From assembly GCA_033762315.1 (NCBI GenBank), contig JANRLS010000079.1, positions 11,292 to 75,291 on the forward strand: a stretch of 64,000 nt of DNA. The letters are read 5' to 3'. Shown piece by piece: positions 1,661-49,835 of this stretch. Source of the stretch: Pirellulaceae bacterium. Its GTDB lineage: Bacteria; Planctomycetota; Planctomycetia; Pirellulales; Pirellulaceae. Position 1 is the first letter of the stretch. Each line of letters opens with the position of its first letter. The translations under genes were made by a program, and so were the position numbers. The notes under the pieces were generated by a model. It had not been told where the DNA came from and did not search any database. It saw nothing but the letters and a program-made list of their open reading frames with translations.

Positions 1661-1863
1661 TACCAGGTTTCCAGAAACCCCCGTGTGTGGCCCTGGTGGA
1701 AACTGACGGCGGCGGCAAAGTGCGATTTTCGGGCGGATTTTGCGGGTTCGCGGCCGGGCAGGTTTCCACGGGGGTCGAAAGGGTGGAAACCAAGGTTAAG
1801 TGGAGGCTGAATAAGGACTTAGGTCACAAAATGGGGAGAAAAGGAGGGTGACGAGTGGAAACC
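1661..1863 (+). repeat. Non-coding modular element, copy 1 (GGTTTCC / GGAAACC units)
   Basis: The 22-mer TACCAGGTTTCCAGAAACCCCC (1661-1682) is identical to 35014-35035. GGTTTCCAC (1761-1769) and GTGGAAACC (1783-1791) form a hairpin. Another GTGGAAACC at 1855-1863 starts 72 nt after the previous one, the same offset as in copy 2. No credible ORF. Confidence 0.7.
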
Positions 1864-2310: not shown

Positions 2311-3504
2311 ATGACTACCAACGGATCGCTCAATCGGAAGCTGCGGATGGCCCTCGTCGGCGGGGGGCAAGGGGCGTTTATCGGCCGCGTTCATGCCACG
2401 GCGGCGGTGCTCGACAACCGGGCCGCTTTGGTCGCGGGTTGCCTGTCGAGCAGTCCGGAAAAGGCCAAGGCGTCGGCACCCGATTACGACATCCCGGCCG
2501 AGCGGGCTTATGCGTCGATCGGCGAGCTGGTGCAAAAAGAGAAAGCCCTGCCGGCCGATCAGCGGATCGATTTCGTGAGCGTGGCCACGCCGAACCACAC
2601 CCACTTCGAGATCGCCAAGACGGCGGCCGAGGCGGGCTTCAACGTGATCTGCGATAAGCCGCTGACATTCGACCTCGCCCAGGCGGAGGCGCTCGCCGCC
2701 ACGGTCGAGAAAACCGGCGTGGTGTTTGCGGTCACGCACAACTACACGGGCTATCCGCTGGTGCGGCAAGCGCGGGAGATGATTCTGGCGGGGGAGTTGG
2801 GAGAGATCAACGCGATTCGCTCGTTCTACATTCAAGGCTGGCTGCGGACGCGGCTCGAAACCGGCGACCAGAAGCAGGCCGCCTGGCGGACCGATCCAAA
2901 ACGGAGCGGCGCGGCGGGGTGCTTCGGGGACATCGCCACGCACGCCTATAACCTGGCCCGCTACATGACGGGGCTCTTGCCGGCCGAGATCAGTTGCCAC
3001 CTCAAATCGTTCGAGGCGGGGCGCCAGCTCGACGACTACGGCACCGCCATCATCAAGTTCCAAAATGGCGCGCTGGGCACGGTGACGGCGTCGCAAATCA
3101 GCCACGGCCGCGAGAACGACCTGTTCATTGAAATCGACGGCACGAAGGGGGCGATTCAGTGGCGGCAGGAAGAGCCAAACACGCTAATTCTGCGGAAGAA
3201 CGGCCAGCCGCACCAGATTTATACGCGCGGCGGCGGGCCCTATTTGGGTCAGGCCGCCGCCGCCGCCAGCCGGTTGCCGCCGGGGCATCCGGAGGCGTTT
3301 TTCGAGGCGTTCGCGAACGTTTATCGGGCCGCTTACGACGCCATGATTTTGCGGGCCGAGGGGAAGAAATTCGAGCCGGTGAACACGGTTTATCCGAACG
3401 TGAACGACGGCGTCGAAGGGATGTATTTCATTCAGCAATCGGTGGCCAGCAGCCAGCAAAATGGGGCCTGGCTGCCGCTCGCGCACGGGCGAGCGAGGAA
3501 GTAG
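2311..3504 (+). CDS. Gfo/Idh/MocA family oxidoreductase
   Basis: N-terminal Rossmann motif [18 protein letters not shown]. The remainder fits the family ([17 protein letters not shown]). Start moved to the ATG at 2311 inside ORF 2278..3504. Confidence 0.85.
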
Positions 3505-4927: not shown

Positions 4928-6862
4928 TTACGGCTCGATTCCCAGCCAAATCCGCGACGACAGCACGAGCCGCTCGGCACTCGAGAGGGCTTGCCAGTCG
5001 CCGCGAACCCGAATCGCGAGGTCCGGGTCGCTCGTCATGAGATTATCGACGCCGCGCTGCAAAAAGCGCGACATTTGCCGCGGGTCGTTGACCGTCCAGA
5101 CATGCACTTCGCGCCCTTGCCGCTGGGCCCGCGCGAGCAGATCGTCGCTCAGAAAATCGGCCCGCACGCTGAGCGCATCCACGTCGAGCCGCGAAAGGTC
5201 TCCCACGGCCTGCGCCACGATCAGCCCCGTGCGCTGCCGCGGATTGAGGCGGCGGGCTTCGCGGCAATCGGCGAGGTGAAACGAAGTGATGAGACACTGA
5301 TCGGCGAAGTCCGCATCGCGCACAACCGCCGTGACGGCGGCGGCGAGAGTCCGGTCGGTGGCGGTCGATTTCAGCTCGATATTGAGCCGCAGTTCGCCCC
5401 GGCAGAGGTCGATCGCCTCGGCGAGCGTGGGCACGCGCTCGCCCGTGAATTGCGAGCCGAACCAGCGGCCGACATCGAGCTGCTTGAGCTGAGCCAGCGA
5501 AACCTGATCGATCCGCCGCGAGTCGCTGGCGACGCGCCGCAGGTCGCGGTCGTGCAGCAGCACCACCACGCCGTCGGAGGTTTGTCGGGCATCGATCTCG
5601 GCATAGTCCGCGCCGCTGGCGATGGCGGCGCGCAGCGCGGCGAGGGTGTTTTCCGGCGCGGCGCGGGCGTGTCCGCGGTGGGCCGTGATTCCCACCGGCC
5701 GGGGCTCGGGGACGAGCCACGGAAGTTCGATCCAAATGATGAGCGGCAAGAGCACGACGCCGGCGAGCAGCGTGCCGACGATGCGTCTCGGCCACGGTCC
5801 GGCGGCGGCGGGTTCCTCGGCAGGAGCGGGAGTTGGCGGCGGTCCGCACTGCTGGCGGGCGGCCAGATAGAGCCGGCGCGTCAGCAGGGCGAGGCCGATC
5901 ATGAGGACGAGCGAACTGGTGGCCAGAAGGAGCGCTTGCCCGGCGAGCAACATGGCGATCAGCCAGACCGGCGTCGTTTCGCCCCAGTCGAGCAGCAGCG
6001 CGGCCAACCAGCGATAGGCGGCCGTCACGCCGGTGGCCGCCGCGAACCAAATGGCCAGCCAGCCGCCGAGAATGAGGAGGATTCGCCAGAAGGTTCCGCG
6101 AGTCAGCTCGCGACTGGTGCGGCAGGCGGCGCGCACCGATTGCCCCTCGAACAGAACCACGGGGAGCGCGAGCGACCAGCGGACCTGCAGCCAGGTCGAG
6201 AGGATGGTGCCCACCGCGGCGAGGACCGTGCCGATGCCGACGGCCAGCCAGAATTCCGGAGGCCGCTTTTGCCAGTAGAAATAGATGTCGTACCTCGTCA
6301 GCAGCAGTTGCCAGGTGAATGCCGCCGCGATGGCCAGCGGGATCGCCCCCGCGGCGAGCACGACCAATTGCAGCGCAGCGAAGCGGGTCACGCGCCAAAC
6401 ACCGAGCAGCAGCCGGCTGGCCGCTGGGCGCGAAGCGCCATCCCAGGCGGCCAGGGCCATGATCGCCGCTTGCTCGATGAGGAACACGCTGAGCCACAAC
6501 AGCGCGAGGAGCGCCGCCGCCGCCAGCCCGAGCGGCGAAAGCACGGCGTCGAGCAGTTCGCGATTGCTGACCGCTACCCGCCCCGACCGAGACAGGAGCA
6601 GCGCCAACACGAGCGCCGCGGCCGGGGCGACGAGCCAAGCCTCGACGAACTTGGCCCCCAATTGAAACAACACCAGCCGCTTCCACGCCGCGCGGAAGTC
6701 GTCCGCCGCGCGGCGGCAAAGCTCCAAGACCGTCGCGGATTCGGTGCCGCGATCGACAGCCAGGGGATTGCTTTCGAGGTCAGTGTCGGACGGTCTAATG
6801 CTTGTGTTCCGCGCCGGCCGGGGTGAATTCGACGGTGAAGGGCTTGCCGTTGATCGTGACAT
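4928..6862 (-). CDS. Membrane-anchored glycerophosphodiester phosphodiesterase (GDPD) family protein
   Basis: C-terminal GDPD motifs ITAHRGHARAAPENTLAAL and AEIDARQTSDGVVVLLHD follow a long multi-TM N-terminal domain. The start is uncertain. The ATG at 6862 overlaps the upstream gene by 68 nt, and an in-frame TTG at 6727 would remove the overlap. Confidence 0.8.
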   Translation of the reverse strand: MSRSTASPSPSNSPRPARNTSIRPSDTDLESNPLAVDRGTESATVLELCRRAADDFRAAWKRLVLFQLGAKFVEAWLVAPAAALVLALLLSRSGRVAVSNRELLDAVLSPLGLAAAALLALLWLSVFLIEQAAIMALAAWDGASRPAASRLLLGVWRVTRFAALQLVVLAAGAIPLAIAAAFTWQLLLTRYDIYFYWQKRPPEFWLAVGIGTVLAAVGTILSTWLQVRWSLALPVVLFEGQSVRAACRTSRELTRGTFWRILLILGGWLAIWFAAATGVTAAYRWLAALLLDWGETTPVWLIAMLLAGQALLLATSSLVLMIGLALLTRRLYLAARQQCGPPPTPAPAEEPAAAGPWPRRIVGTLLAGVVLLPLIIWIELPWLVPEPRPVGITAHRGHARAAPENTLAALRAAIASGADYAEIDARQTSDGVVVLLHDRDLRRVASDSRRIDQVSLAQLKQLDVGRWFGSQFTGERVPTLAEAIDLCRGELRLNIELKSTATDRTLAAAVTAVVRDADFADQCLITSFHLADCREARRLNPRQRTGLIVAQAVGDLSRLDVDALSVRADFLSDDLLARAQRQGREVHVWTVNDPRQMSRFLQRGVDNLMTSDPDLAIRVRGDWQALSSAERLVLSSRIWLGIEP

Positions 6863-22502: not shown

Positions 22503-23807
22503 CTACGCCAAAATCTCGCGGATCGGCTGGCCGATGTTGAGAATCTGCACCGGCCGGTTCGCCTCGTTGAGATAGCTCTTCGTGTAGTCGATGCCGAGCA
22601 GGTGATACATCGTGGCGAGCACGTCCTGATGGCTGATCGGCCGGTCCTTGGGTAGCTCGGCCAGGGCGTCGCTGCTGCCGAGGATGACTCCCCGCTTGAC
22701 GCCACCGCCGGCCAAGACGACCGAGTAGCAACTGGGCCAATGGTCGCGCCCCGCCTTGGCGTTGATTCGCGGCGTGCGGCCGAATTCGCCGGCGACGATG
22801 ACCAGCGTCCGGTCGAGCAGGCCGCGCTGCTCCAGGTCTTCGATCACCGCCGAAACGGTGTGGTCGTAGGCAGGCAAATTAAGCCGATGGGCCGTGAAAT
22901 TGTCGTCGTGCGAATCCCACGGGCGGGCAAACGACATGCTGACCGTGACGAACCGCGCCCCGCGCTCGATGAGCCGGCGGGCGAGCAGGGCGCTTTGGCC
23001 GGGGTTGCTCTTCTTGTCGTACCGCTCGCGGGTTTTTTCGTCTTCCTGGTTCAGGTCGAACGCCTCGGCCACGGCGGGGCTGGTGGCCAATTCAAACGCC
23101 TGCCGGCGGAAGGTATCCATCGCCGCCAGGTCGCCGCTGGCGTCGGCATCGCGGCGGGCGGTGTCGAAGCGCTGGAGCATCGCCTTGCGCGACTCGACCC
23201 GGTTGGGCTGAATGTTTTCGGGCCGCAGATTGCGCACCTTGAAGCCCGCGCTGGTCGGATAGCCGAAGGTCTCGAAGGGGTCGTGCGCCACCCCTAAATA
23301 GCCCGCCCGGCCGTGGCCGATCGCATCTTGCACGGCGATATATCCCGGCATTCCGGCCCGCCAGCCAAGCTCCTTGGCGATGATGCTGCCGCAGGAGGGG
23401 GCTTCCTGGGCGGGATCCCCTTTCGTCGGCGCATAGCCGGTGAGGACGGTATGCACGGCCTGCGAATGCTCCCCCATGTTGTGGTGGACCGAGCGGAGAA
23501 TCGCCAGCTTATCGCACATTTGCGAGAGCTTCGTCAGATGCTCGCCGACGCGATACCCCGGCAGATTCGACGGGATGCTGCCGAATTCGCCGCGGTATTC
23601 GACCGGAGCGTCGGGCTTCATGTCCCAGGTTTCCAGGTGGCTCGGCCCGCCGGGCTGGAATAGGAGCAGCACGCTGAGCTTATCGGCCGTCGGCGACGCC
23701 CCCGCCGCCGCCTCGTGGGCCAGCAGGTTCGCCAGGGCCGAGCCGCCAAATGAGACCGCGCCAGCCTGGATGAGGCCGCGGCGGGAGATGTGAAGTTGGT
23801 TGAGCAT
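22503..23807 (-). CDS. DUF1501 domain protein (sulfatase-like, Tat signal)
   Basis: SRRGLIQAGAVSFGG, GRDHWPSCYSVVLAGGG. Confidence 0.88.
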   Translation of the reverse strand: MLNQLHISRRGLIQAGAVSFGGSALANLLAHEAAAGASPTADKLSVLLLFQPGGPSHLETWDMKPDAPVEYRGEFGSIPSNLPGYRVGEHLTKLSQMCDKLAILRSVHHNMGEHSQAVHTVLTGYAPTKGDPAQEAPSCGSIIAKELGWRAGMPGYIAVQDAIGHGRAGYLGVAHDPFETFGYPTSAGFKVRNLRPENIQPNRVESRKAMLQRFDTARRDADASGDLAAMDTFRRQAFELATSPAVAEAFDLNQEDEKTRERYDKKSNPGQSALLARRLIERGARFVTVSMSFARPWDSHDDNFTAHRLNLPAYDHTVSAVIEDLEQRGLLDRTLVIVAGEFGRTPRINAKAGRDHWPSCYSVVLAGGGVKRGVILGSSDALAELPKDRPISHQDVLATMYHLLGIDYTKSYLNEANRPVQILNIGQPIREILA

Positions 23808-23825
23808 TTCAAATCCTACTCGTGT

Positions 23826-24326
23826 TCAAGCGGGACTATATCGTTGGACCCCAGTGATTCGGTCAAAATCGCTATCGTTGCTGGCGATCTTCCTGAGCCC
23901 GCTGGCAGTCATCGCCGCGAGCACCATCGCATCGTTGCTCAGCAATCCAGTTTGTTGGCTCAGCCGTGGTCCCTGCGAAGTGAGGGTAGGGGTGACAGAC
24001 AGCACCTGAATCCGAGAATTCAAGACGGTTTCAACGGCTTGCTGAAATCGACCCAGCTTTCGAACCTCGTCCGGATTCTTGCGCAACTTGACCGCGATTC
24101 CAGCCACGGGCCATTGCAGGGCGACAATCGCTTCAATGGTCATCATCCGGTGGGCAAGCTCCGTTACCACGTGGGTCGAAGTGAAACCAAGCACATCTCC
24201 CGTTTCAATTCGTTGAATAAGTTCGCTGCAGGCAGCGCCGTACTTTGAGTCGGCGGCAAAGTGATAAACGAAGGTGTTCGCATCGAGAAACACGGAATCT
24301 CCCGTCATCAAGTCGCGAAAAATCAT
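23826..24326 (-). CDS. vapC: PIN-domain ribonuclease toxin (VapC-like)
   Basis: Acidic PIN residues in VFLDANTF, VVTELAH, LLSNDAMV, IASNDSDF. The start codon overlaps the antitoxin stop (ATGA). Confidence 0.85.
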   Translation of the reverse strand: MIFRDLMTGDSVFLDANTFVYHFAADSKYGAACSELIQRIETGDVLGFTSTHVVTELAHRMMTIEAIVALQWPVAGIAVKLRKNPDEVRKLGRFQQAVETVLNSRIQVLSVTPTLTSQGPRLSQQTGLLSNDAMVLAAMTASGLRKIASNDSDFDRITGVQRYSPA

Positions 24327-24535
24327 GCGGTTTCCTGCGACTGGAATTCGGGATCCTCGGCCAGACTCCGCAGCGTTTCGTGGTCTCCGTTCCAACCCAA
24401 AATCCCAAACGCTTCAACAATCGCGCTCCCCTGCGACTCAATCGTCACCCGCACCCTTTCGTTGGGAGCCAACGGCACGGGGTGCGCAAGACGCAGAACC
24501 CCATTGTCATAGGTTGCCTCGACGTTGTGGGTCAT
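24323..24535 (-). CDS. Antitoxin, AF2212/DUF104-like (VapB-type partner)
   Basis: MTHNVEATYDNGVLRLAHPVPLAPNERVRVTIE matches the small antitoxin family motif (Y-x-N-G-V-L-x-P ... V-x-V-x-I). 70 aa, with a 4-nt overlap with vapC. Confidence 0.8.
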   Translation of the reverse strand: MTHNVEATYDNGVLRLAHPVPLAPNERVRVTIESQGSAIVEAFGILGWNGDHETLRSLAEDPEFQSQETA

Positions 24536-24588
24536 TTTGCTTGTTCCTCTCAACTGCGTGTCAAGTGGCGAGGATTTGCAATCGAAAC

Positions 24589-33856: not shown

Positions 33857-34651
33857 ATGTTACCGGCGTTTTCGAGAATTTCCGTTCACCAGGCAGCGGG
33901 AGTGGCGCACGTGGGGGTTTGGACCGAAGAATTGGTGGGAGGGCATCCGTGCGACCTCTTTCTCCCCAGCCGCCGCAGCCCGCACGGGTATGTCGCGCTC
34001 TATCTGCACGGCGTCCACCTGAACCGCCTGCACGATAAGGGCCCCTTTATCGAGCAATTCGAGCGGCACGGCCTGGCGGTTGTTTGCCCGCACACGCAGC
34101 GCAGCTGGTGGACCGATAAAATCTGCGAAGAATTCGACCGCACCATCTCGGCCGAAAAGCATCTGTTAAAAAACGTGCTGCCGTTCATCGAGCAGCGACT
34201 CGGCGCCAAGCCGCCGCGGATCGGCCTCTTGGGAACCAGCATGGGAGGCCAAGGAGCCTTGCGACTGGCCTATAAACACCCGAATGTGTTCCCCGTTGTC
34301 GCGGCCATTTCGCCGGCCATCGATTTCCATAAGCGCTACAACGAAGGGGACGAGACGATTCCGCAGATGTATCCCGATCCCGAAGCGGCCCGACAAGACA
34401 CGGCCCTGTTGCACATTCACCCGCTGAATTGGCCGCGGAACCAGTTTTTTTGCTGCGACCCGACCGATTACCGCTGGCACGAAAGTGCCGACCGCCTGCG
34501 GATGAAACTCTGGTCGCTCGGCGTCCCTCACGAATGCGACCTTGCAACCACCGGCGGCGGCCACGGCTTCGAGTATTACAACCGCATGGCCGAACGGGCC
34601 GTGGGATACCTGGCGGAAAAACTGGATGAAGAGCGGAGGAGGATTGGGTAG
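33857..34651 (+). CDS. Esterase-family alpha/beta hydrolase
   Basis: ATG at 33857 inside ORF 33683..34651. Nucleophile elbow GTSMGGQGA. Layout is esterase D-like. Confidence 0.75.
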   Translation: MLPAFSRISVHQAAGVAHVGVWTEELVGGHPCDLFLPSRRSPHGYVALYLHGVHLNRLHDKGPFIEQFERHGLAVVCPHTQRSWWTDKICEEFDRTISAEKHLLKNVLPFIEQRLGAKPPRIGLLGTSMGGQGALRLAYKHPNVFPVVAAISPAIDFHKRYNEGDETIPQMYPDPEAARQDTALLHIHPLNWPRNQFFCCDPTDYRWHESADRLRMKLWSLGVPHECDLATTGGGHGFEYYNRMAERAVGYLAEKLDEERRRIG

Positions 34652-35013: not shown

Positions 35014-35297
35014 TACCAGGTTTCCAGAAACCCCCCTAGGTGGCCCAAATGGAAACCAGTTCGCCGACTTTGGCCCCTTGGGAGGGGATTCCGACTCTGG
35101 CCAAAGCCTCGCTGCAAACCTTTGCCATTGCAGCAGTTAGGGCGAAAGAGCGGCTCGCGTTCGCTCGTCAGATCGACCAGCCACCGCGAGCGCAGGTTTC
35201 CAGGCAGGCCACTTTCGTGGAAACCAACGGTAACTCGTTGTCCGACAACAGGTTAACAGCGTTTTTCTTGCCAAGCCGGCAAACGTCCGTGGAAACC
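35014..35297 (+). repeat. Non-coding modular element, copy 2 (GGTTTCC / GGAAACC units)
   Basis: Same 22-mer as copy 1 at 35014-35035. Followed by GTGGCCC..GGAAAC. Hairpin GGTTTCCA (35195-35202) / TGGAAACC (35218-35225). GTGGAAACC at 35217 and again at 35289, a 72-nt offset. Confidence 0.7.
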
Positions 35298-35325: not shown

Positions 35326-36396
35326 TCATGAGCTGGCGCGACACGCCGCGAGCAGCTGTGCGGGAACGGCCAGCGATTGGGCACAGTCCGCGAGCTCGCG
35401 CCAGGTGTTGTCGTCGAGCTCGATGCCACGGGCACCGCGCTCAGCGCGGTGGCGGCGCTCGACATCGCCGGGGACGAGAATCTCGGCCGTGGGGTTGGCT
35501 TTCTCCGCGCTTTTGACGAAATCGAGAAAGCGCCGCACGTCGTCCAGAAAATGATCTCCCACCTGAAACACGCACGGATCGAGCAGGATCGAGAGCATCC
35601 CCTGCTCCAGCCGGGTTTTGCCGGGGGCCGAGCAGCCGCCGCCGGTGAGCGCGCCGGCCAGAATTTCGGCGACGATTCCGAGGCCATATCCCTTGTGCCC
35701 GCCAAACGGCAAAATCGCGCCGGGAGGATCGGCATAGAAAACTCGCGGATCGCGGGTCGGGTTGCCCGCCGCGTCGATGATGCACCCCTCCGGCACGGAG
35801 ACTCCCTTGTTGAACGCCACCTTCAGCTTTCCTTCGGCCACCGACGCGGTCGAAATGTCGTAGATAATCGGTTCGCCACCGGCAACCGGAATGCCCGCCG
35901 CCACCGGATTGGCCGACAATCGCCGACTAATGCCGCCGACCGGAGCGACGAGCAGCCCCAGGCCGCTGGTGTTCACGAAGTGCAGCGAAACCAGCCCCGC
36001 GGCGACCGCCATTTCGGCCCAATGGCCAACGCGGCCGACATGCCCGCTATTGCGCAGCGATACGACCGCCACCCCGCCACGGCTGGCCTTTGCGATGCCG
36101 AGTTGAATTGCCTGCTGGGCGATGGATTGCCCCAGACCAAGTTGCCCATCGACGACGGCGAGGGTGTCGTTTTCAAAGAGCACCTTCAGTCGCTGGTTGG
36201 CCAGCACCTTCCCCTCGGCGAGCCAGCGGACATAGGTCGGCGCGCGAATGACGCCGTGCGAATCGTGCCCGGTCAGGTTGGCCTGCACCAAATGGTCGGC
36301 CACGACTTGCGCCTCGTCGGCAGCGCAGCCCGCGGCGGCGAAAATCGCGGTCGTCAGGTTTTGCAGCGGCTGCGGCGGCGCGCGAAAGAAGGACAT
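35326..36396 (-). CDS. Ldh family (malate/L-lactate dehydrogenase type 2) oxidoreductase
   Basis: Start at MSFFRAPP. LTGHDSHGVIRAPTYV and GGHKGYGLG motifs. Confidence 0.85.
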   Translation of the reverse strand: MSFFRAPPQPLQNLTTAIFAAAGCAADEAQVVADHLVQANLTGHDSHGVIRAPTYVRWLAEGKVLANQRLKVLFENDTLAVVDGQLGLGQSIAQQAIQLGIAKASRGGVAVVSLRNSGHVGRVGHWAEMAVAAGLVSLHFVNTSGLGLLVAPVGGISRRLSANPVAAGIPVAGGEPIIYDISTASVAEGKLKVAFNKGVSVPEGCIIDAAGNPTRDPRVFYADPPGAILPFGGHKGYGLGIVAEILAGALTGGGCSAPGKTRLEQGMLSILLDPCVFQVGDHFLDDVRRFLDFVKSAEKANPTAEILVPGDVERRHRAERGARGIELDDNTWRELADCAQSLAVPAQLLAACRASS

Positions 36397-36490
36397 GACG
36401 AAATCCAAGAGCGGGACGGAACCGCGGGACGGATTGCGAAGTATCTTGCCGCGCGAAGTGCATTGGGTCGATAGCCGAATGCCGCAGACC

Positions 36491-36580
36491 CTCACCCCGT
36501 CCCTCTCCCCGAGGGAGAGGGAGAAGATGCGGCAAACGCTCACCCCGGCCCTCTCCCCGAGGGAGAGGGAGAGGGAGAAG
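36491..36580. repeat. Tandem pair of REP-like hairpins CCCTCTCCC-CGA-GGGAGAGGG
   Basis: Perfect 9-bp stems at 36501-36521 and 36549-36569. The flanks ctcaccccg(t/g) repeat with a 48-nt period. Lies between the DUF1501 stop and the Ldh start. Confidence 0.75.
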
Positions 36581-36588
36581 AACGGGGA

Positions 36589-37884
36589 TTACACCAACTC
36601 GGAGATGGCCCGGCCCTTCTCGAGCATGAAGATGGGGCGACCGGCGGTGCTTTGGAATTGCACTTTCGGGTCGATGCCGAGGACGTGAAAGATCGTCGCC
36701 ATGAGGTCTTGCGGGCCGATGGGCTGGCTGGCGGGAACATCGACCTTCGGGGCCGATTCGCCGATGACCTGCCCCATTTTGAGGCCACCGCCAGCGAGGG
36801 CGAGCGTGCTGAGAGGTGCCCAGTGATCGCGGCCGGCATTTTTGTTGACGCGCGGCGTGCGGCCGAATTCGCCGCTGATGACGAGCAGAATTCGCTGGTC
36901 GAGCCCGCGCTCGTGGATGTCTTCGACGAACGCCGAGACCGCCTGATCGAGTTGCGGGCTGCGCTGGGTCATGCTCCGTTCGATGTTGCCGTGCATGTCC
37001 CAGCCGCCGTAGGAGATCGTCACGAAGCCGCAGCCCGCTTCGCACAGGCGGCGGGCGGTCAGCAGTTGAGCGCCGAGCCCTTCGCCATAGCGCTTGATCG
37101 TCTGGCTGCTTTCCTGGCGATAGTCGAAGGCTTGGGCCGAACTTCCCAGCACGAGGTTGAACGCTTGCTGCTCGAATTTTTTAACGCCGGCATTGTCGAG
37201 GACTCGCTTTTGGGCATCGAGCCCTTCGAGCAGATTGCGGCGGTCGGCGAGGCGTTCTTCGGGGAGCGAGAGCTCCATGCTCTTGCGGGCCTGACCATCT
37301 TGATCGAACGGGTTGTAGGCGTGGCCGAGAAACGCCGCCCCGCCCCCTTGGCGAATTTCTCCCATGCGGACATACGTCGGCATGCCGGTGACGGGGTGGC
37401 TCGCGCCGCGAACGCGGGCCAAAATCGAGCCGTGTCCCGGCCGGCTGGGGACGCCGCCGTTATCGACCATCCGGTTGTCGTAGCCGGTGTTGACATAGTG
37501 CGTGCCGCCGCCGTGGCCGCTGTTGGTATGGGCAAACGAGCGGACGAAGGCCATCTTGTCGGCGACGCTGGCGATTTTCGGCAGCGTGCCGCCGAGCGTG
37601 ACGCCGGGGATTTTCGTCGCCACTTCGCCCGTGGTGCTGCGATACTCGGACGGGGCGGTCATTTTCGGATCGAAGGTTTCGACGTGCGTCGGCCCCCCCG
37701 CCAGCCACAACCACACCACTGCCGTATCCTTCACGAGGCTCCCCGCCTGAGCCGCGTTGGCCCGCGCCTCCAACAGGGCCGGCAAAGTCAACCCGCCGAG
37801 GCCGAGCGCGCCCACCTTCAGAAACTCGCGCCGCGTGGCACCGTCGCAATCACGAAATCGGCGATTGGAAACGACCTGGAACAT
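36589..37884 (-). CDS. DUF1501 domain protein (sulfatase-like, Tat signal)
   Basis: Start at MFQVVSN. TRREFLKVGALGLGG. GRDHWAPLSTLALAGGG. Confidence 0.88.
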   Translation of the reverse strand: MFQVVSNRRFRDCDGATRREFLKVGALGLGGLTLPALLEARANAAQAGSLVKDTAVVWLWLAGGPTHVETFDPKMTAPSEYRSTTGEVATKIPGVTLGGTLPKIASVADKMAFVRSFAHTNSGHGGGTHYVNTGYDNRMVDNGGVPSRPGHGSILARVRGASHPVTGMPTYVRMGEIRQGGGAAFLGHAYNPFDQDGQARKSMELSLPEERLADRRNLLEGLDAQKRVLDNAGVKKFEQQAFNLVLGSSAQAFDYRQESSQTIKRYGEGLGAQLLTARRLCEAGCGFVTISYGGWDMHGNIERSMTQRSPQLDQAVSAFVEDIHERGLDQRILLVISGEFGRTPRVNKNAGRDHWAPLSTLALAGGGLKMGQVIGESAPKVDVPASQPIGPQDLMATIFHVLGIDPKVQFQSTAGRPIFMLEKGRAISELV

Positions 37885-37952
37885 GGCTGGCTCCTGGCTG
37901 GCAAAAGGTGGTGGGGCGATCGGCGTCCCCCAGGGGGTATCGACCAATACCT

Positions 37953-37986
37953 GCTTGATACATCAAATATAGTTGATATGTCAAGC
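37953..37986. promoter_or_regulatory. AT-rich imperfect 34-bp palindrome with TTGAT/ATCAA half-sites upstream of DUF1501 gene
   Basis: gcttgatacatcaaatatagttgatatgtcaagc. About 70-100 nt upstream of the start at 37884 and conspicuously AT-rich against GC-rich flanks. Confidence 0.45.
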
Positions 37987-38022
37987 TGCGCGGCGCGCGA
38001 TTCTTGGCCCGCCAAGACGGCC

Positions 38023-38922
38023 CTACCGCAAGCCCTCGGCCGAGACCTCGACGCTGGCCGGCTGCACCGTGGAGCCGCCCAGCGGCGGAAGGTCGGCCAG
38101 GAATTGATCGAACGCGACCCGATATTCTTCGGGCTGCGGATCGTTGTGCTTGCCGCCCGAGACCGTGATCAGCTTCTTCGGACCGGGCGCGGCCTGATAG
38201 AGCGCGAGCCCTTGCTCATACGGAATCACCTCGTCCGCATCGCCGTGGCTCAAAAGCAGCGGCCCGCGATAGCTTTTGATCTTTTCGAGCGAGTTCATGC
38301 GGTGAGTCATCAGCCAGCTCATCGGCAGATAGGGGAGATGATGCTGGGCGACATCCGGCAGCGAGGTGAACGTGCTGGCCAGCACCAGGCCTCGCGCGCC
38401 GTCCTGCGAAGCCAGATCGACCGCCACGCCCCCACCCAGCGACAGCCCCAAAAGCAGCACGTCGCTCTCGGCAATCCCTTCTTTCTCGGCCAGCCACTTG
38501 CGAGCCGCGCGGGCATCGAGCAGCACTCCCTGTTCGCTCGGCTTTCCTTCGCTTCGCCCATAGCCGCGATAGTCGAGCGCGAGAACCGCCAGGTTGTGGC
38601 GGCGATTCAAGATGCGGAGTGTCTCGGCCAGGATCGTGATGTTCCCCGCGTTCCCATGCAGAAACAGGGCGTGCGCCTTGGGCTCCGGATGCCGCACGTA
38701 CCACCCATGCAGCTTGACTCCATCCGCGCTGGTGAAGTAGGCGTCGTTCACGAGCACGGTGGTCGGCTGCCAATCGCCAGTGGGATATTTCTGCGGCTGG
38801 AAGATGCTCTTCCGCTCGGAGCTAGCCAGGGGCGAATAGCTGCCGAGCATGGCGCAGCCGCTAGCATGGCAGAGCCACGAGGTGGCCAGCGCCAACAGCG
38901 CGAGTTGCGGGCAGCGGTTCAC
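38023..38922 (-). CDS. Alpha/beta hydrolase lipoprotein
   Basis: Lipobox-like HASGC. LFLHGNAGN and the nucleophile elbow GLSLGGG. Confidence 0.8.
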   Translation of the reverse strand: MNRCPQLALLALATSWLCHASGCAMLGSYSPLASSERKSIFQPQKYPTGDWQPTTVLVNDAYFTSADGVKLHGWYVRHPEPKAHALFLHGNAGNITILAETLRILNRRHNLAVLALDYRGYGRSEGKPSEQGVLLDARAARKWLAEKEGIAESDVLLLGLSLGGGVAVDLASQDGARGLVLASTFTSLPDVAQHHLPYLPMSWLMTHRMNSLEKIKSYRGPLLLSHGDADEVIPYEQGLALYQAAPGPKKLITVSGGKHNDPQPEEYRVAFDQFLADLPPLGGSTVQPASVEVSAEGLR

Positions 38923-38994
38923 GATCGGGGCTTCCCCACGGGGCGACGATCCTTCGTTCGCGGGGGCGAAGAGTATCCGGCCGGCGACCGCGGG

Positions 38995-40536
38995 TCAACG
39001 CGAAGTTGCTGGCCGGGACAAATCGGTCGTGCGGCTCAAATCGGCGACGTTCGCCGCCTCCCCTTCTTGCACGCAAACCCGATTGCGCCCCTGATTGACG
39101 GCCGTCTGCAACGCCTTGCGGGCCCGCTCCAGAATCCGCCGCAGGTCGTCTCCCGGGCAGGCTTCGACCACGCCCAGGCTGATCGTGAACCAATTGGCCC
39201 CCGCCTTGCGCGGCAAGCGGCAACGCTCGACCGCCCCCCGCAGACGTTCGCCAATCAGCACCGCGTCGGCGATGTGCGCCCCTGGCAGCAGCATGGCGAA
39301 GGTGTCGTCTCCCAGGCGAGCGACGTGGTCCATGTCGCGCATCACGGCATTGACGAGCTGCGCGGTGACGCGGAGCACCACGTCCCCCGCGCTGGTTCCG
39401 TTGTCGCCGACGATCCGCTCGAAGCCATCGACCTGCAAGAGCATCAGCGCCAGCGGCGAGCCGCCGCGCCGCCACTGCGAAAGCCGGCGAATCATGTCGT
39501 CGAAAAAGACCGGCCGGCTCGAGACGTGCGCGAGTGGCTCGCGCTGGCACGACTCGGCCGCGTCGGCTTCGTAGAGCCACTCGTCGCCGATGCGCTCGGG
39601 CGTGGCGGTGACGATCGGCGTTTGGGCATCGAGCTTCACGAGATGATTGCTGCGGCCGTCACTATAGTGCGCGCAGTTGCGGCCAGCGCTTTTGGAGGCA
39701 TAGAGCGCCTCGTCGGCCCGGCGCACCAGGTCTTTCTCGGTCTCGTCGGGCATCAACTCGGCGAGCCCGGCACTCGCGGTGACTTTCAGTTGCTTGCCCG
39801 CGAACTTGAACAGGGTGCCGGCAATCGCCTGGCGAGCCTTTTCGGCCTGGGCCATGATCTGCCGCACGCCCAGCCCCGCGAACACGGCGGCGAACTCCTC
39901 GCCCCCATAGCGGGCGACCAGGCCCCCCTCGCCAATGTTCGCGCGGAGCACGCGGGCCACGCCGCGGAGCACCTCGTCTCCCGCCTGATGACCGTGCGTG
40001 TCGTTGAATTTCTTGAAGTGATCGACATCGATCAGCATGATCGCCGCCGGACTGCCGCGGCGTTGCTGCTCGGCCACGCAGCGGCGGATTTCGTCGTCGA
40101 GCGCCCGCCGATTGGCCACCTGCGTCAGGGCGTCGGTGCGGGCTTCGACCGCGTGCGATTCAATCTGCCGGGCCTGGGCTTGCAGCCGCTCTTCGGCCGT
40201 ATCGAGCTGCCGCTGCATCCGGGCATTGGCATCGATCAGTTGAGCGACGGCCGAAAGAACCGCCGATTCGTCGTTGTCTCCGTCGGGGTCGGCCAGTTGG
40301 GCGTTGATCTCTTGCACTTGCGAGCTGTGTTGATCCACGTCGGCCGCCACGCGGCTCGTCAGCTCTTGCAGCCGGGCCAGCGTTTCGCGGGCAAAGCGGG
40401 CCTCGGCATCTTCGAGCGGCGCGGCGCGCGCGCGAATCCGCCGGCGCAGGGCGAGCCACGCCAGCCCACAGGCAGCGCACAGCGTCGCCAGCAGCAGAAA
40501 AATGGAAACCAGCGTCGTCATCAGGGTGCCGAGCAA
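38995..40536 (-). CDS. Membrane-anchored diguanylate cyclase with tandem GGDEF domains (active + degenerate)
   Basis: N-terminal TM plus coiled coil. Domain 1 has RYGGEEF. Domain 2 has RLGDDTF preceded by RDMD. Confidence 0.85.
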   Translation of the reverse strand: MLGTLMTTLVSIFLLLATLCAACGLAWLALRRRIRARAAPLEDAEARFARETLARLQELTSRVAADVDQHSSQVQEINAQLADPDGDNDESAVLSAVAQLIDANARMQRQLDTAEERLQAQARQIESHAVEARTDALTQVANRRALDDEIRRCVAEQQRRGSPAAIMLIDVDHFKKFNDTHGHQAGDEVLRGVARVLRANIGEGGLVARYGGEEFAAVFAGLGVRQIMAQAEKARQAIAGTLFKFAGKQLKVTASAGLAELMPDETEKDLVRRADEALYASKSAGRNCAHYSDGRSNHLVKLDAQTPIVTATPERIGDEWLYEADAAESCQREPLAHVSSRPVFFDDMIRRLSQWRRGGSPLALMLLQVDGFERIVGDNGTSAGDVVLRVTAQLVNAVMRDMDHVARLGDDTFAMLLPGAHIADAVLIGERLRGAVERCRLPRKAGANWFTISLGVVEACPGDDLRRILERARKALQTAVNQGRNRVCVQEGEAANVADLSRTTDLSRPATSR

Positions 40537-40659
40537 GGGATCGATGGCGAGACTATCCGCCCTAGGAGTGACATAGGTTGTCTGGGGACCAAGTCAACCC
40601 AAACGGAGCCAAATCGGTGGGACTGTGCCAATTGTGCGGACAATCGCCGCCACGCCGCA

Positions 40660-42000
40660 CTACGCGCCGGGCGCGGTTCCCAGCAGCTGCCCCGTTTTCG
40701 ACACGCGATAGAGCGCGTGCCCGCCGGGGGCGATTCCCTGCAGCTTGCCGGCGGCGTCGCGCGATTGGCCATACACGACAAACACCCGAAATTCGTCGGC
40801 ACCCTCGGTCCCCTCGCAATCGAACGGCAAGCCGCCGCCGGACTCGCGCACGGCCGCTTGCTTGACGATTTCAATCGCCGCGGCCAGCGTGATGGGGGGA
40901 TTCGCATAGGCCGCCTGCTGAATGGGCGCCGATCCCGGCAGCACATTCGGCGGCGGCAAGGCGTTGGCCGGGGGCGAGGCATATCGTGGCGCGGGGGCGA
41001 GTGGGCTGATCGCCGGCCGCGCGGCGACTTGCGCGAGCGCCACTTGCACCACCTTCTGCTGCTCGTTCAACAGCCGCTGCGTCTTGCGATAGTCGCTGTC
41101 GGCATAGGCGGCGATCGCCTGATCGAGTTGCTTTTTGGCACCGGCGAAATCGCCGCCAGCCGCGCTGGCGAGGGCCAGGTTGTGCAGGGCGGCGTGATTG
41201 CGGGGATTGTCTTTCAGAGCGGCTTGCCAATCGGCCGCCGCGCCGGGCCAGTTTCCCTTGAGGGCCTTAGAGTTTCCCTTGCGCAGGGCGGTGAGGCCGT
41301 TCCCCCAATACTGCCGCGCGAGCCGCACCTCGACCGGCGCCCTATGCGGGGCGATCATCGCCACCACGTCGCGCGAGCATTGGTTGAGCAGCTCCCCCAG
41401 CACGCGCTCTTGGCCGGGCAAATCTCCCTGGCCGTTGAGCACCTGTCCTTCGAACGAATGCGAGGTCTGGCGGGCGGCTCGGATTTCGCCGGTGCGGGCG
41501 TCGATCAGCTTAATGGCGAGCGAGACGGTCGCCTCGCGCGAGAGCAGGGTATTCGTATCGATGCCGATGCCCAGGCTGCTGCCGCGGCCAAGCGGACCGC
41601 TCGACTGGCCGCCGCCGAGGCTGATGTGCTGGTCGGTCTGCTTCTGGTCGGCCACGTTGTAGCTGACGACCTGGCCGGTCAAAATCGCATCGACCCCGCT
41701 GTGCCGGGCCGCCTGCACGAGGGCCGCTTCGTTCGGCTGACCTTGAACGAACGCCGCCGGCAGGACGCGGGCCAGTTCCCCCTGATCGACCAAGGCATAG
41801 TGGCGATTTTCGGAAAGCTGGGCGAGCAGCACCGACTTGGCGATTTTGCCTGCTTCTCCTTCGCCCTCGAAATCAACCACCGCCAAGCGGCCGATCCCCG
41901 ACACGTCGAACTCCGCCGGGCGCAGCACCAGCATCTGGGCTCGCGGCGCGCAGCCCGTGGCCGCGGCGAGTATCAGGAGTAGATAGCAAGACTCGCGCAT
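40660..42000 (-). CDS. Lipoprotein with CsgG/LpoB-like N-terminal domain and TPR repeats
   Basis: Start at MRESCYLLLILAAATGC (lipobox). RLAVVDFEGEGE...ALVDQGELARVL pattern. TPR-like WQAALKDNPRNHAALHNLALA. Confidence 0.65.
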   Translation of the reverse strand: MRESCYLLLILAAATGCAPRAQMLVLRPAEFDVSGIGRLAVVDFEGEGEAGKIAKSVLLAQLSENRHYALVDQGELARVLPAAFVQGQPNEAALVQAARHSGVDAILTGQVVSYNVADQKQTDQHISLGGGQSSGPLGRGSSLGIGIDTNTLLSREATVSLAIKLIDARTGEIRAARQTSHSFEGQVLNGQGDLPGQERVLGELLNQCSRDVVAMIAPHRAPVEVRLARQYWGNGLTALRKGNSKALKGNWPGAAADWQAALKDNPRNHAALHNLALASAAGGDFAGAKKQLDQAIAAYADSDYRKTQRLLNEQQKVVQVALAQVAARPAISPLAPAPRYASPPANALPPPNVLPGSAPIQQAAYANPPITLAAAIEIVKQAAVRESGGGLPFDCEGTEGADEFRVFVVYGQSRDAAGKLQGIAPGGHALYRVSKTGQLLGTAPGA

Positions 42001-44145: not shown

Positions 44146-44391
44146 GACAACTACTCCTTTGCATGTAAGAAATCGAGCCGCTTGGTTAGCGGAGAGAGTC
44201 TCGATTCAGGGAGCAATCGCCGTGCCAACCGTGCCGCTCAAGCGGATCGCGAGGGTGAAAAGCGTGGTTTCACCATTGATCGTGGCTCTCGGTGTGGTTC
44301 CAGCCGATAACTCGATGGTCATTGGCGTTCGCCGCGCGGACAGCCTGGTCGCCCAATGACCACGGGTGGCTTGTGCTCCGTCAAACCAGAA

Positions 44392-47000: not shown

Positions 47001-47260
47001 TCGGCGTGTACCGCTATCTATGCGGCTGACCGGATTGGCGTTGGCAAGCAAGCCTGGCCACCTACGGGGAGCGGAAGGTCCGTGAGCCAGTTCTGTGCTC
47101 TGCAACAACCGTTTCCATGTAGTTCGTTGAGGTGAATGGCAACCTTCAAGCGTTTCAACGACTTATGACTTGCCGCTATATTGCTATCGGGATAGAACCG
47201 TTTTCGATACGGAAGCTGACTTCTGCATAATTCTGTGTTAGGCGGCACGGAGACATTCCT

Positions 47261-49112: not shown

Positions 49113-49835
49113 ATGGGACGCAGTTTCGAGAATCGCAAGAAGTCGATCTTCAAGACGGCCGCGCAGAATTCCAAGGTTTATTCCAAGTATGGCAAGCAGC
49201 TCTACGTGCTGGCCAAGAACGGCGTTCCCGATCCGGACGCCAACCCGGCCCTGCGGAGCCTGATCGAAAAGGCGAAGCGCGACCAGGTGCCGGCGCATGT
49301 GATTGATAAGGCGATTGAAAAGGCTCGCGGCGCGGGGGGGGAGAATTTCGAGCCGGCTCGCTACGAAGGCTTTGGCCCCGGCGGTTCGATGGTGATTGTC
49401 GATTGCCTGACCGACAACAAGCAGCGGACCATTTCCGAGGTCCGCAATTGCTTCACCAAGACGAACTCCAAGCTGGGAGCGACCGGGTCCGTTTCGCTCT
49501 GGTTCGATCACCTCGCGGTGCTGTCGTTCAAGGGAGACAACGAAGAGGCGGTGCTCGAAGCCCTGATGGCCGCGGACGTGAATGTCGAGGAGATCGAGAA
49601 CAAAAACGGGACGCTGACGATCTTTGCTCCCCCCGGCGAGTTTTTCAAAGCCAAAACGGCCCTGTTGCAGGCGTTTCCCAAGACCGAGCTGGAAGTGCAG
49701 GAAATCACCTTCCTGCCGCAAACCCTCAAGCCGATCAGTGCTGAAGACCTGCCGATGTTTCAGAAGTTTCTCGACATGCTCAGCGACTGCGACGACGTGC
49801 AAGAGGTCTATCACAACGCCGACGTGGCGGGGTAA
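49113..49835 (+). CDS. YebC/PmpR family DNA-binding regulator (YeeN-like subtype)
   Basis: [31 protein letters not shown]...[15 protein letters not shown]...[19 protein letters not shown] follows the family along its whole length. Confidence 0.88.

Follow-up and report, generated by a model that had tools for sequence, protein, structure and literature searches.

Two five-box intergenic modules in a Pirellulaceae genome, possibly copies of a lineage-restricted hairpin repeat

What kind of element carries the same short boxes at the same spacings in two places, with unrelated DNA between them? Two gene-free regions of a Pirellulaceae genome, 33 kb apart in the 64,000-nt stretch of DNA that we analyzed (the window), raise this question. 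A preliminary description, made from the letters of the window, had found both regions and had set three options side by side: a structured RNA, a MITE-like element or an array of operator sites. We find that the module is real, that it matches no known family, and that it is narrow, with two copies in one lineage and none in relatives. We tentatively rank first the explanation that the modules are a lineage-restricted, dispersed intergenic hairpin repeat of the REP/BIME/REPIN kind, and we hold this explanation with somewhat less than even confidence.

Anatomy of the two modules

Each module consists of two islands, A and B, around a variable spacer, followed by a trailing box.

1661 to 1863, plus strand: module copy 1, made of island A, a variable spacer, island B, a 63-nt spacer and the trailing box U5
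1661 to 1703, plus strand: island A of copy 1, with the 22-mer at 1661-1682, U1 (GGTTTCCA) at 1666-1673, GTGGCCC at 1687-1693 and U2 at 1697-1704
1704 to 1757, plus strand: variable spacer of copy 1, 81 nt shorter than the spacer of copy 2 and unrelated to it; predicted to fold as a hairpin tip
1758 to 1799, plus strand: island B of copy 1, reading GCA, U3 (1761-1768), a 15-nt interior, U4 (1784-1791), then AAGGTTAA
1855 to 1863, plus strand: trailing box U5 of copy 1, GTGGAAACC
35014 to 35297, plus strand: module copy 2, with its parts in the order and orientation of copy 1
35014 to 35056, plus strand: island A of copy 2, with the 22-mer at 35014-35035, U1 at 35019-35026, GTGGCCC at 35040-35046 and U2 at 35050-35057
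35058 to 35191, plus strand: variable spacer of copy 2, with three local hairpins, e.g., CTTTGGCC/GGCCAAAG at 35068-35106
35192 to 35233, plus strand: island B of copy 2, reading GCA, U3 (35195-35202), the 15-nt interior GGCAGGCCACTTTCG, U4 (35218-35225), then AACGGTAA
35289 to 35297, plus strand: trailing box U5 of copy 2, GTGGAAACC, ending 29 nt before the opposite-strand Ldh_2 stop codon
Boxes of copy 1: 1666 (>), 1697 (<, 7/8), 1761 (>), 1784 (<), 1856 (<)
Boxes of copy 2: 35019 (>), 35050 (<), 35195 (>), 35218 (<), 35290 (<)

The unit that truly recurs is an 8-mer, read as GGTTTCCA (>) or, in complement, as TGGAAACC (<); it occurs five times per module in the order > < > < <. Nine of the ten boxes are perfect, the exception being U2 of copy 1 (TGGAAACt, seven of eight bases), and the boxes have the common flank W-GGTTTCCA-S. 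The spacings from U1 to U2 (31 nt), from U3 to U4 (23 nt) and from U4 to U5 (72 nt) are identical in both copies. Only the U2-to-U3 spacing differs, at 64 nt in copy 1 and 145 nt in copy 2.

The identical 22-mer TACCAGGTTTCCAGAAACCCCC noted earlier at 1661 and 35014 is exact, and it had no match in shuffles of the window, even with 3 mismatches allowed. In copy 1, the near-palindrome GGTTTCCAGAAACC (1666-1679) lies inside island A. The island itself is larger than was first described: it spans 43 nt at 86% identity between the copies. Island B spans 42 nt at 71% identity. Measured from box to box, the islands are 39 bp (A) and 31 bp (B) long. The stems proposed for island B are present as described, with 9 bp in copy 1 (1761-1769/1783-1791) and 8 bp in copy 2 (35195-35202/35218-35225). 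The 72-nt offset is also exact (1783 to 1855 and 35217 to 35289), and the probability that a 9-mer recurs at the same offset by chance is about 4e-6. The motif GTGGCCC followed by GGAAAC occurs in both copies; its spacing is N4 in both, not N4 in one and N5 in the other. Conserved motifs beside or between the boxes are TACCA, GAAACCCCC and GTGGCCC.

The rest of the module is not shared. Inter-island DNA is 20 to 30% identical along shared diagonals, the random level for its base composition, and the two variable spacers are 0 to 30% identical on the diagonal. This agrees with the earlier view that the modules are not a recent duplication. Because the DNA between the islands is at random identity and the three conserved intervals contain no indels, the boxes and their geometry are under constraint, and the remainder of the module is free of it.

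The window contains five occurrences of GTGGAAACC (0.5 expected), all inside the two modules. The shorter word GGAAACC occurs 17 times (9.4 expected); nine of these are in the modules, and the other eight are at background level. We rejected three further candidates for boxes or copies. The GGAAACC at 2299 lies before the Gfo start codon in surroundings shared with relatives, which read GGATTTCC or GGAATTCC. The possible third copy at 23624 is a match to coding sequence, and that at 47110 is a pair with one mismatch, as expected by chance.

Genomic setting and distribution

The genes that flank the modules, together with yebC, which is relevant to gene order, are as follows.

Stop at 1380: CHAT-PDZ protease gene, left flank of copy 1
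2311 to 3504, start at 2311: Gfo/Idh/MocA gene, right flank of copy 1
Stop at 34651: esterase gene, left flank of copy 2
Stop at 35326, opposite strand: Ldh_2 gene, convergent with the esterase gene, right flank of copy 2 (mechanical ORF 35326-36543)
49113 to 49835: yebC, 47 kb from the Gfo/Idh/MocA gene in the source genome

The gap around copy 1 is 930 nt long, from the CHAT stop to the Gfo start, and copy 1 lies 450 nt from that start. The gap around copy 2 measures 674 nt and separates the convergent esterase and Ldh_2 genes. That both regions are gene-free holds up: the ORFs in the gaps have no Pfam match, and tblastx between the gaps found the DNA islands only, with stop codons in them. 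We therefore rejected a coding reading. By reading of the sequence, the two upstream genes each come with a separate 3' hairpin.

The Ldh_2 and Gfo/Idh/MocA proteins of the window are 100% identical to NCBI proteins from a metagenome-assembled genome (MAG) (MDX1944998.1). The nearest named relatives are Anatilimnocola species, with 84% identity in Gfo. The 33 kb between the copies contains ordinary planctomycete genes (DUF1501, PSCyt/PSD1, ECF sigma factor, WD40, radical SAM and FHA), and we found no integrase or transposase in it. Therefore, we rejected the idea that the copies are the att sites of an integrated island.

Three other features of the window are recorded here as observations in their own right. 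Two tandem 48-nt units (36479-36572, 91% matches) with the internal palindrome CTCTCCC-CGA-GGGAGAG lie around the 5' end of the Ldh_2 gene, in the 5' part of its mechanical ORF, beside a DUF1501 gene. In a lower-GC patch at 23800-24560, two small ORFs of the minus strand overlap (about 23826-24330 and 24323-24553); they are a candidate toxin-antitoxin pair. A 1,776-aa plus-strand ORF at 36652-41982 has no Pfam match and is probably spurious; the minus strand opposite it encodes a DUF1501 protein, an alpha/beta hydrolase, a GGDEF protein and a CsgG/TPR protein.

For the orthologous comparison, we used contigs with close homologues of three flanking genes. The module was absent at all three flanks. 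Downstream of Ldh_2 in relatives (73 to 82% identity), an NHL-repeat gene follows directly, or the DNA is unrelated. Upstream of Gfo (90 to 91% identity), yebC precedes, and the gap is only 250 to 300 nt. Downstream of the esterase (80% identity), 155 nt are followed by a PSCyt/PSD1 and DUF1501 pair. The yebC and Gfo/Idh/MocA genes are adjacent in two relatives (L014 and L016), in contrast to the 47 kb between them in the source genome. Gene order around both modules is thus rearranged relative to the relatives, and from the comparisons at the three genes, both modules sit in long gaps of differing gene order. An inversion at the esterase locus was considered and rejected, because the DUF1501 genes, at 27% identity, are not orthologues.

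Searches beyond the three flanks led to the same picture. About 108 kb of non-redundant related DNA contained no box cluster and no match to the profile. Among 185,579 species genomes, the 19-mer core had only four matches (L001 to L004), each of which falls in coding sequence and is due to chance. Neither blastn against plasmids nor a scan of the viral collection for island B gave a match; viral 17-mer matches (L017 and L018) were rejected as chance matches in coding or AT-rich DNA. A scan of JGI metagenomes for the island A architecture returned one match, L005, which has an A-like unit only, with 38-nt spacing. This lower-GC soil contig carries the unit next to a TetR gene. L005 may be related, or it may be a chance match (about 0.1 expected, from a guessed collection size).

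The preliminary description had named a lack of further copies and of conservation in related genomes as an outcome that would count against its proposal. Since the window holds no third copy, the module is absent at all three orthologous flanks, and the 19-mer has no true match among the species genomes, the functional-RNA and operator options are weakened.

A dispersed hairpin repeat as the preferred explanation

Island B is an inverted and shortened version of island A: it corresponds to the reverse complement of A, from which internal segments have been deleted. In copy 1, island B retains CACGGGGGT, the complement of ACCCCCGTG in island A, and a second complementary pair is CCCTGGTGGAAAC/GTTTCCACGGGGG. 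In copy 2, the complementary pair is GTGGCCCAAATGGAAACC/GGTTTCCAGGCAGGCCAC; here, the A interior taken as its reverse complement is TTTG-GGCCAC-CTAGGGGGG-TTTC, which compares with GGCA-GGCCAC-TTTC-G in the B interior. Therefore, the module can fold A to B as an interrupted hairpin of about 21 to 30 bp with a variable tip. Minimal A-GAAA-B constructs had predicted energies of -43.4 and -44.0 kcal/mol on the plus strand and -38.0 and -41.5 kcal/mol on the minus strand.

In E. coli BIMEs, related palindromic units of opposite orientation lie outside genes around a less conserved spacer and form a long hairpin, as in the module. REPIN copies are normally alike along their whole length, whereas the two modules share their boxes only and have an extra lone box at a fixed 72 nt. 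REP doublets and REPINs resemble the module in several respects: they are extragenic, often between convergent genes, and lineage-specific, and they consist of two imperfect palindromic units in opposite orientation around a less conserved spacer, which form a long hairpin (PMC3116915, PMC3337134). The inverted-unit hairpin of REPINs (PMC3116915, PMC3337134) has its counterpart in the predicted A:B hairpins.

The likeness has limits. A REP is a small extragenic palindromic unit of 20 to 40 bp with GTAG or CGTC at one end (PMC3733652). The units of the module, 39 and 31 bp, are of this size and extragenic, but only their terminal 8 to 9 bp are palindromic, and their interiors (23 and 15 nt) are not. 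Neither tag is in place: copy 2 has CTAC before the unit, which places GTAG 3' of it on the opposite strand, copy 1 has ATAC, and there is no CGTC. REPINs have an associated RAYT (Y1 transposase) gene (PMC3116915, PMC3337134), whereas Pfam scans of the window ORFs found no RAYT, no other transposase and no recombinase. REPs and REPINs are high-copy elements of their genomes; two copies of the module are present in the 64 kb of the window. The large unpaired interiors also set the module apart from REPINs and BIMEs. Because the REP tag is absent, the window has no RAYT, and the copies are alike only in their boxes, we do not file the module as a member of the REP, BIME or REPIN families; it only works like them.

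Intergenic hairpins made of short inverted boxes are common in these genomes. A second palindrome family of short boxes, TGGTCATTGG/CCAATGACCA, occurs at three places: as two direct boxes at 1904-1933, in the same gap as module 1; as a hairpin at 44314-44360, between CsbD-like and Crp-like genes; and as a hairpin of 2+3 boxes at 5865-5940 of relative L014, directly after a gene stop. It looks like a dispersed REP-like family common to several loci and species. Other examples are a CACGAAA/TTTCGTG hairpin downstream of yebC in two relatives and AGGGTTC/GAACCCT and CGATCCC/GGGATCG hairpins in other relatives. The short-box intergenic hairpins in relatives are located as follows.

Relative L014: 6788 to 6921
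Relative L016: 6283 to 6352
Relative L014: 10521 to 10574
Relative L010: 2321 to 2443

These may be terminator-like or REP-like elements typical of the clade. With other short-box hairpins present, one of them across loci and species, dispersed short-box palindromic families do exist in the clade.

The repeat explanation is ranked first for these reasons. The modules are extragenic, one of them between convergent genes, and each has two related opposite units around a free spacer. They are absent from relatives, they stand at gene-order breakpoints, and similar box families occur in the clade. Moreover, one 64-kb window holds two copies. Against this explanation count the small number of copies seen in those 64 kb, the restriction of likeness to the boxes, the missing GTAG/CGTC tag, the lack of a RAYT, transposase or recombinase gene in the window, and the lack of a target-site duplication.

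In this scenario, each module would consist of two related imperfect-palindromic units in opposite orientation, with a free spacer between them and a lone box after them. The boxes would stay identical through one sequence-specific partner, a protein on the folded strand or on duplex DNA, or through a mutual pairing constraint. The element may have spread or been retained as a short cis-acting hairpin (a DNA cruciform or an RNA stem) and not as a regulator of neighboring genes. If the copies are scattered, the genome would contain many more than the two in the window. Two features are left unexplained by a repeat. The exact 72-nt spacing to the lone fifth box is not accounted for by a passive repeat and points to a geometric constraint, and the plus-strand folding bias described below leans toward RNA.

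MITE copies are normally alike along their whole length. The module shares with MITEs a short, non-coding body with inverted termini, an intergenic location and a patchy distribution. However, its inverted termini are only 8 to 9 bp long, no consistent flanking duplication was found at the two copies, and the interiors are no more alike than random sequences. The modules thus lack a clear MITE signature, with neither a target-site duplication nor near-identical copies. The three options of the preliminary description do not separate cleanly.

Alternative readings and significance

The modules could instead encode a pair of paralogous RNAs on the plus strand, as small RNA genes or as cis-acting leaders, in which mutually exclusive helices act as a switch. 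We consider this possible but doubtful. Here, the module is five mutually complementary 8-nt boxes, two GGUUUCCA and three UGGAAACC, and the reading accounts for the identity of the boxes because each has several partners; it likewise accounts for the helix with G-U pairs described below. Folding lends it some weight. The minimum free energy z scores of whole modules were -2.8 (copy 1) and -4.45 (copy 2) on the plus strand, more stable than shuffles, and weaker on the minus strand (-1.5 and -2.3). RNAalifold gave a common structure of three helices: U1:U4 (8 bp), a 5-bp helix on the conserved TGGCC, and U2:U3 (8 bp). The TGGCC segment pairs in the same register in both copies, and the two G-U pairs that this middle helix requires in copy 1 work only on the plus strand. 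When the 15-nt B interior was shuffled, the real sequence folded better on the plus strand, marginally (P = 0.045 and 0.071), and not on the minus strand (P = 0.72 and 0.21). Cognate A/B pairs folded better than swapped pairs. U5 is complementary to U3 (10 bp, copy 1) or to U1 (9 bp), and these are among many alternative pairings.

The earlier suggestion of a switch is thus borne out in that several box pairings are predicted to be possible, but the RNAalifold alignment of the two copies contains no compensatory base-pair change. As stated before, the module matches no known RNA family: Rfam 15 had no gathering-level match in the window, and matches up to E = 10 in both gaps were only to unrelated eukaryotic or chance families. 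We found no tRNA or tmRNA genes. Consensus scans detected no sigma-70-type promoter in either gap, and the plus-strand terminator scan of the gaps found only the hairpin after the esterase stop. By sequence reading, an AT-richer stretch with borderline sigma-70-like hexamers lies 80 to 130 nt before island A; this stretch and the 3' hairpins of the upstream genes count in favor of an RNA. Other points that weigh against an RNA are the lack of conservation in relatives or in the species genomes, the position of copy 2 directly ahead of the 3' end of a convergent gene, and the exact 72-nt spacer, which is not a usual RNA constraint. Multi-copy small RNA families and attenuator-type switches are like the module in having islands of identity in diverged DNA and segments with several pairing partners. 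They are unlike it in that the module has no promoter or terminator in the scans, is not conserved in relatives and reuses one 8-mer for all its stems. Separately, a minus-strand hairpin followed by a T8 run (1506-1480), about 155 nt to the left of module 1, may hint at a leftward transcript through or near the module.

Alternatively, one sequence-specific protein may bind the boxes as an array of sites on duplex DNA; it could be a transcription factor, a protein of the nucleoid or partition type, or a recombinase or invertase with site specificity. The two inverted pairs, with centers 31 and 23 bp apart, and the fifth site 72 bp away would then be a fixed nucleoprotein geometry. This reading best explains the spacings, as exact distances across unrelated DNA with no indels are the usual signature of protein phasing. 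It also fits the tenfold use of one 8-mer with a common flank, and the conserved TACCA, GAAACCCCC and GTGGCCC by the boxes; within GTGGCCC, only TGGCC is paired in the consensus fold. In invertons, one repeat motif can be common to several loci, and inverted arms around 55 to 136 bp, as in the module, resemble inverton layouts. Nevertheless, we regard a binding array as unlikely. Copy 2, between convergent genes, has no gene to regulate. Copy 1 is remote from the Gfo start, and the orthologous genes lack a module upstream, whereas operator sites are expected upstream of the regulated gene and conserved in relatives. A regulon motif would also be expected to turn up again in relatives, which is not the case. 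The adjacent genes include no regulator or recombinase, and 23 and 72 bp are not whole helical turns.

Several specific kinds of site were rejected. An oriC or DnaA-box cluster was set aside because there is no GC-skew switch at either site and the boxes fit the DnaA box at best in seven of nine positions; by sequence reading, they lack the terminal CACA of DnaA boxes, and two clusters 33 kb apart do not suit a replication origin. A sigma-54 or ECF promoter in island A lacks the required -12 GC or -10 CGT, again by sequence reading. CRISPR-like repeats were rejected, as there is no array and there are no cas genes. BirA operators, hix sites, parS and the att sites of large serine integrases have a half-site arrangement different from that of the module.

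A new kind of folded-strand element specific to a Pirellulaceae lineage is similarly improbable in our view: it would be a multi-state RNA switch of the five boxes or an attC-like single-strand recombination site read by a recombinase. An attC site has nested inverted box pairs, arranged R''/L''...L'/R', an asymmetric internal loop of fixed size and a variable tip, and its sequence is kept only in the boxes. The module likewise has two nested inverted pairs (outer U1:U4, inner U2:U3), a fixed asymmetric internal loop, a variable tip and conservation limited to the boxes. However, its arms are much longer, the R-box consensus GTTRRRY is matched in copy 1 (GTTAAGT) but not in copy 2, neither an integron integrase nor a cassette array is present, and the copies are 33 kb apart among ordinary chromosomal genes.

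Neutral decay after an old duplication nearby, or a likeness due to chance, with the boxes unconstrained in either case, is effectively excluded. The number of copies, just two, and their location in long non-coding gaps are as such a relic would have it, but a 22/22 island and nine perfect boxes of ten beside spacers at random identity are incompatible with neutral decay, and the shuffles and the same-offset probability given above speak against chance.

If the dispersed hairpin repeat is the correct explanation, the modules would represent a new family of boxes among the intergenic repeats of Planctomycetes, which have been little studied. They would mark gene-order breakpoints of the lineage and would help in genome comparison and MAG assembly, with no concept changed. 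If, on the other hand, a dedicated protein recognizes the boxes, or if they act as an RNA switch, their fixed 31/23/72-nt geometry across unrelated DNA would be a compact and testable model. It would represent a case in which conservation applies to a short motif grammar rather than to sequence, in a phylum whose regulatory elements are almost entirely uncharacterized.
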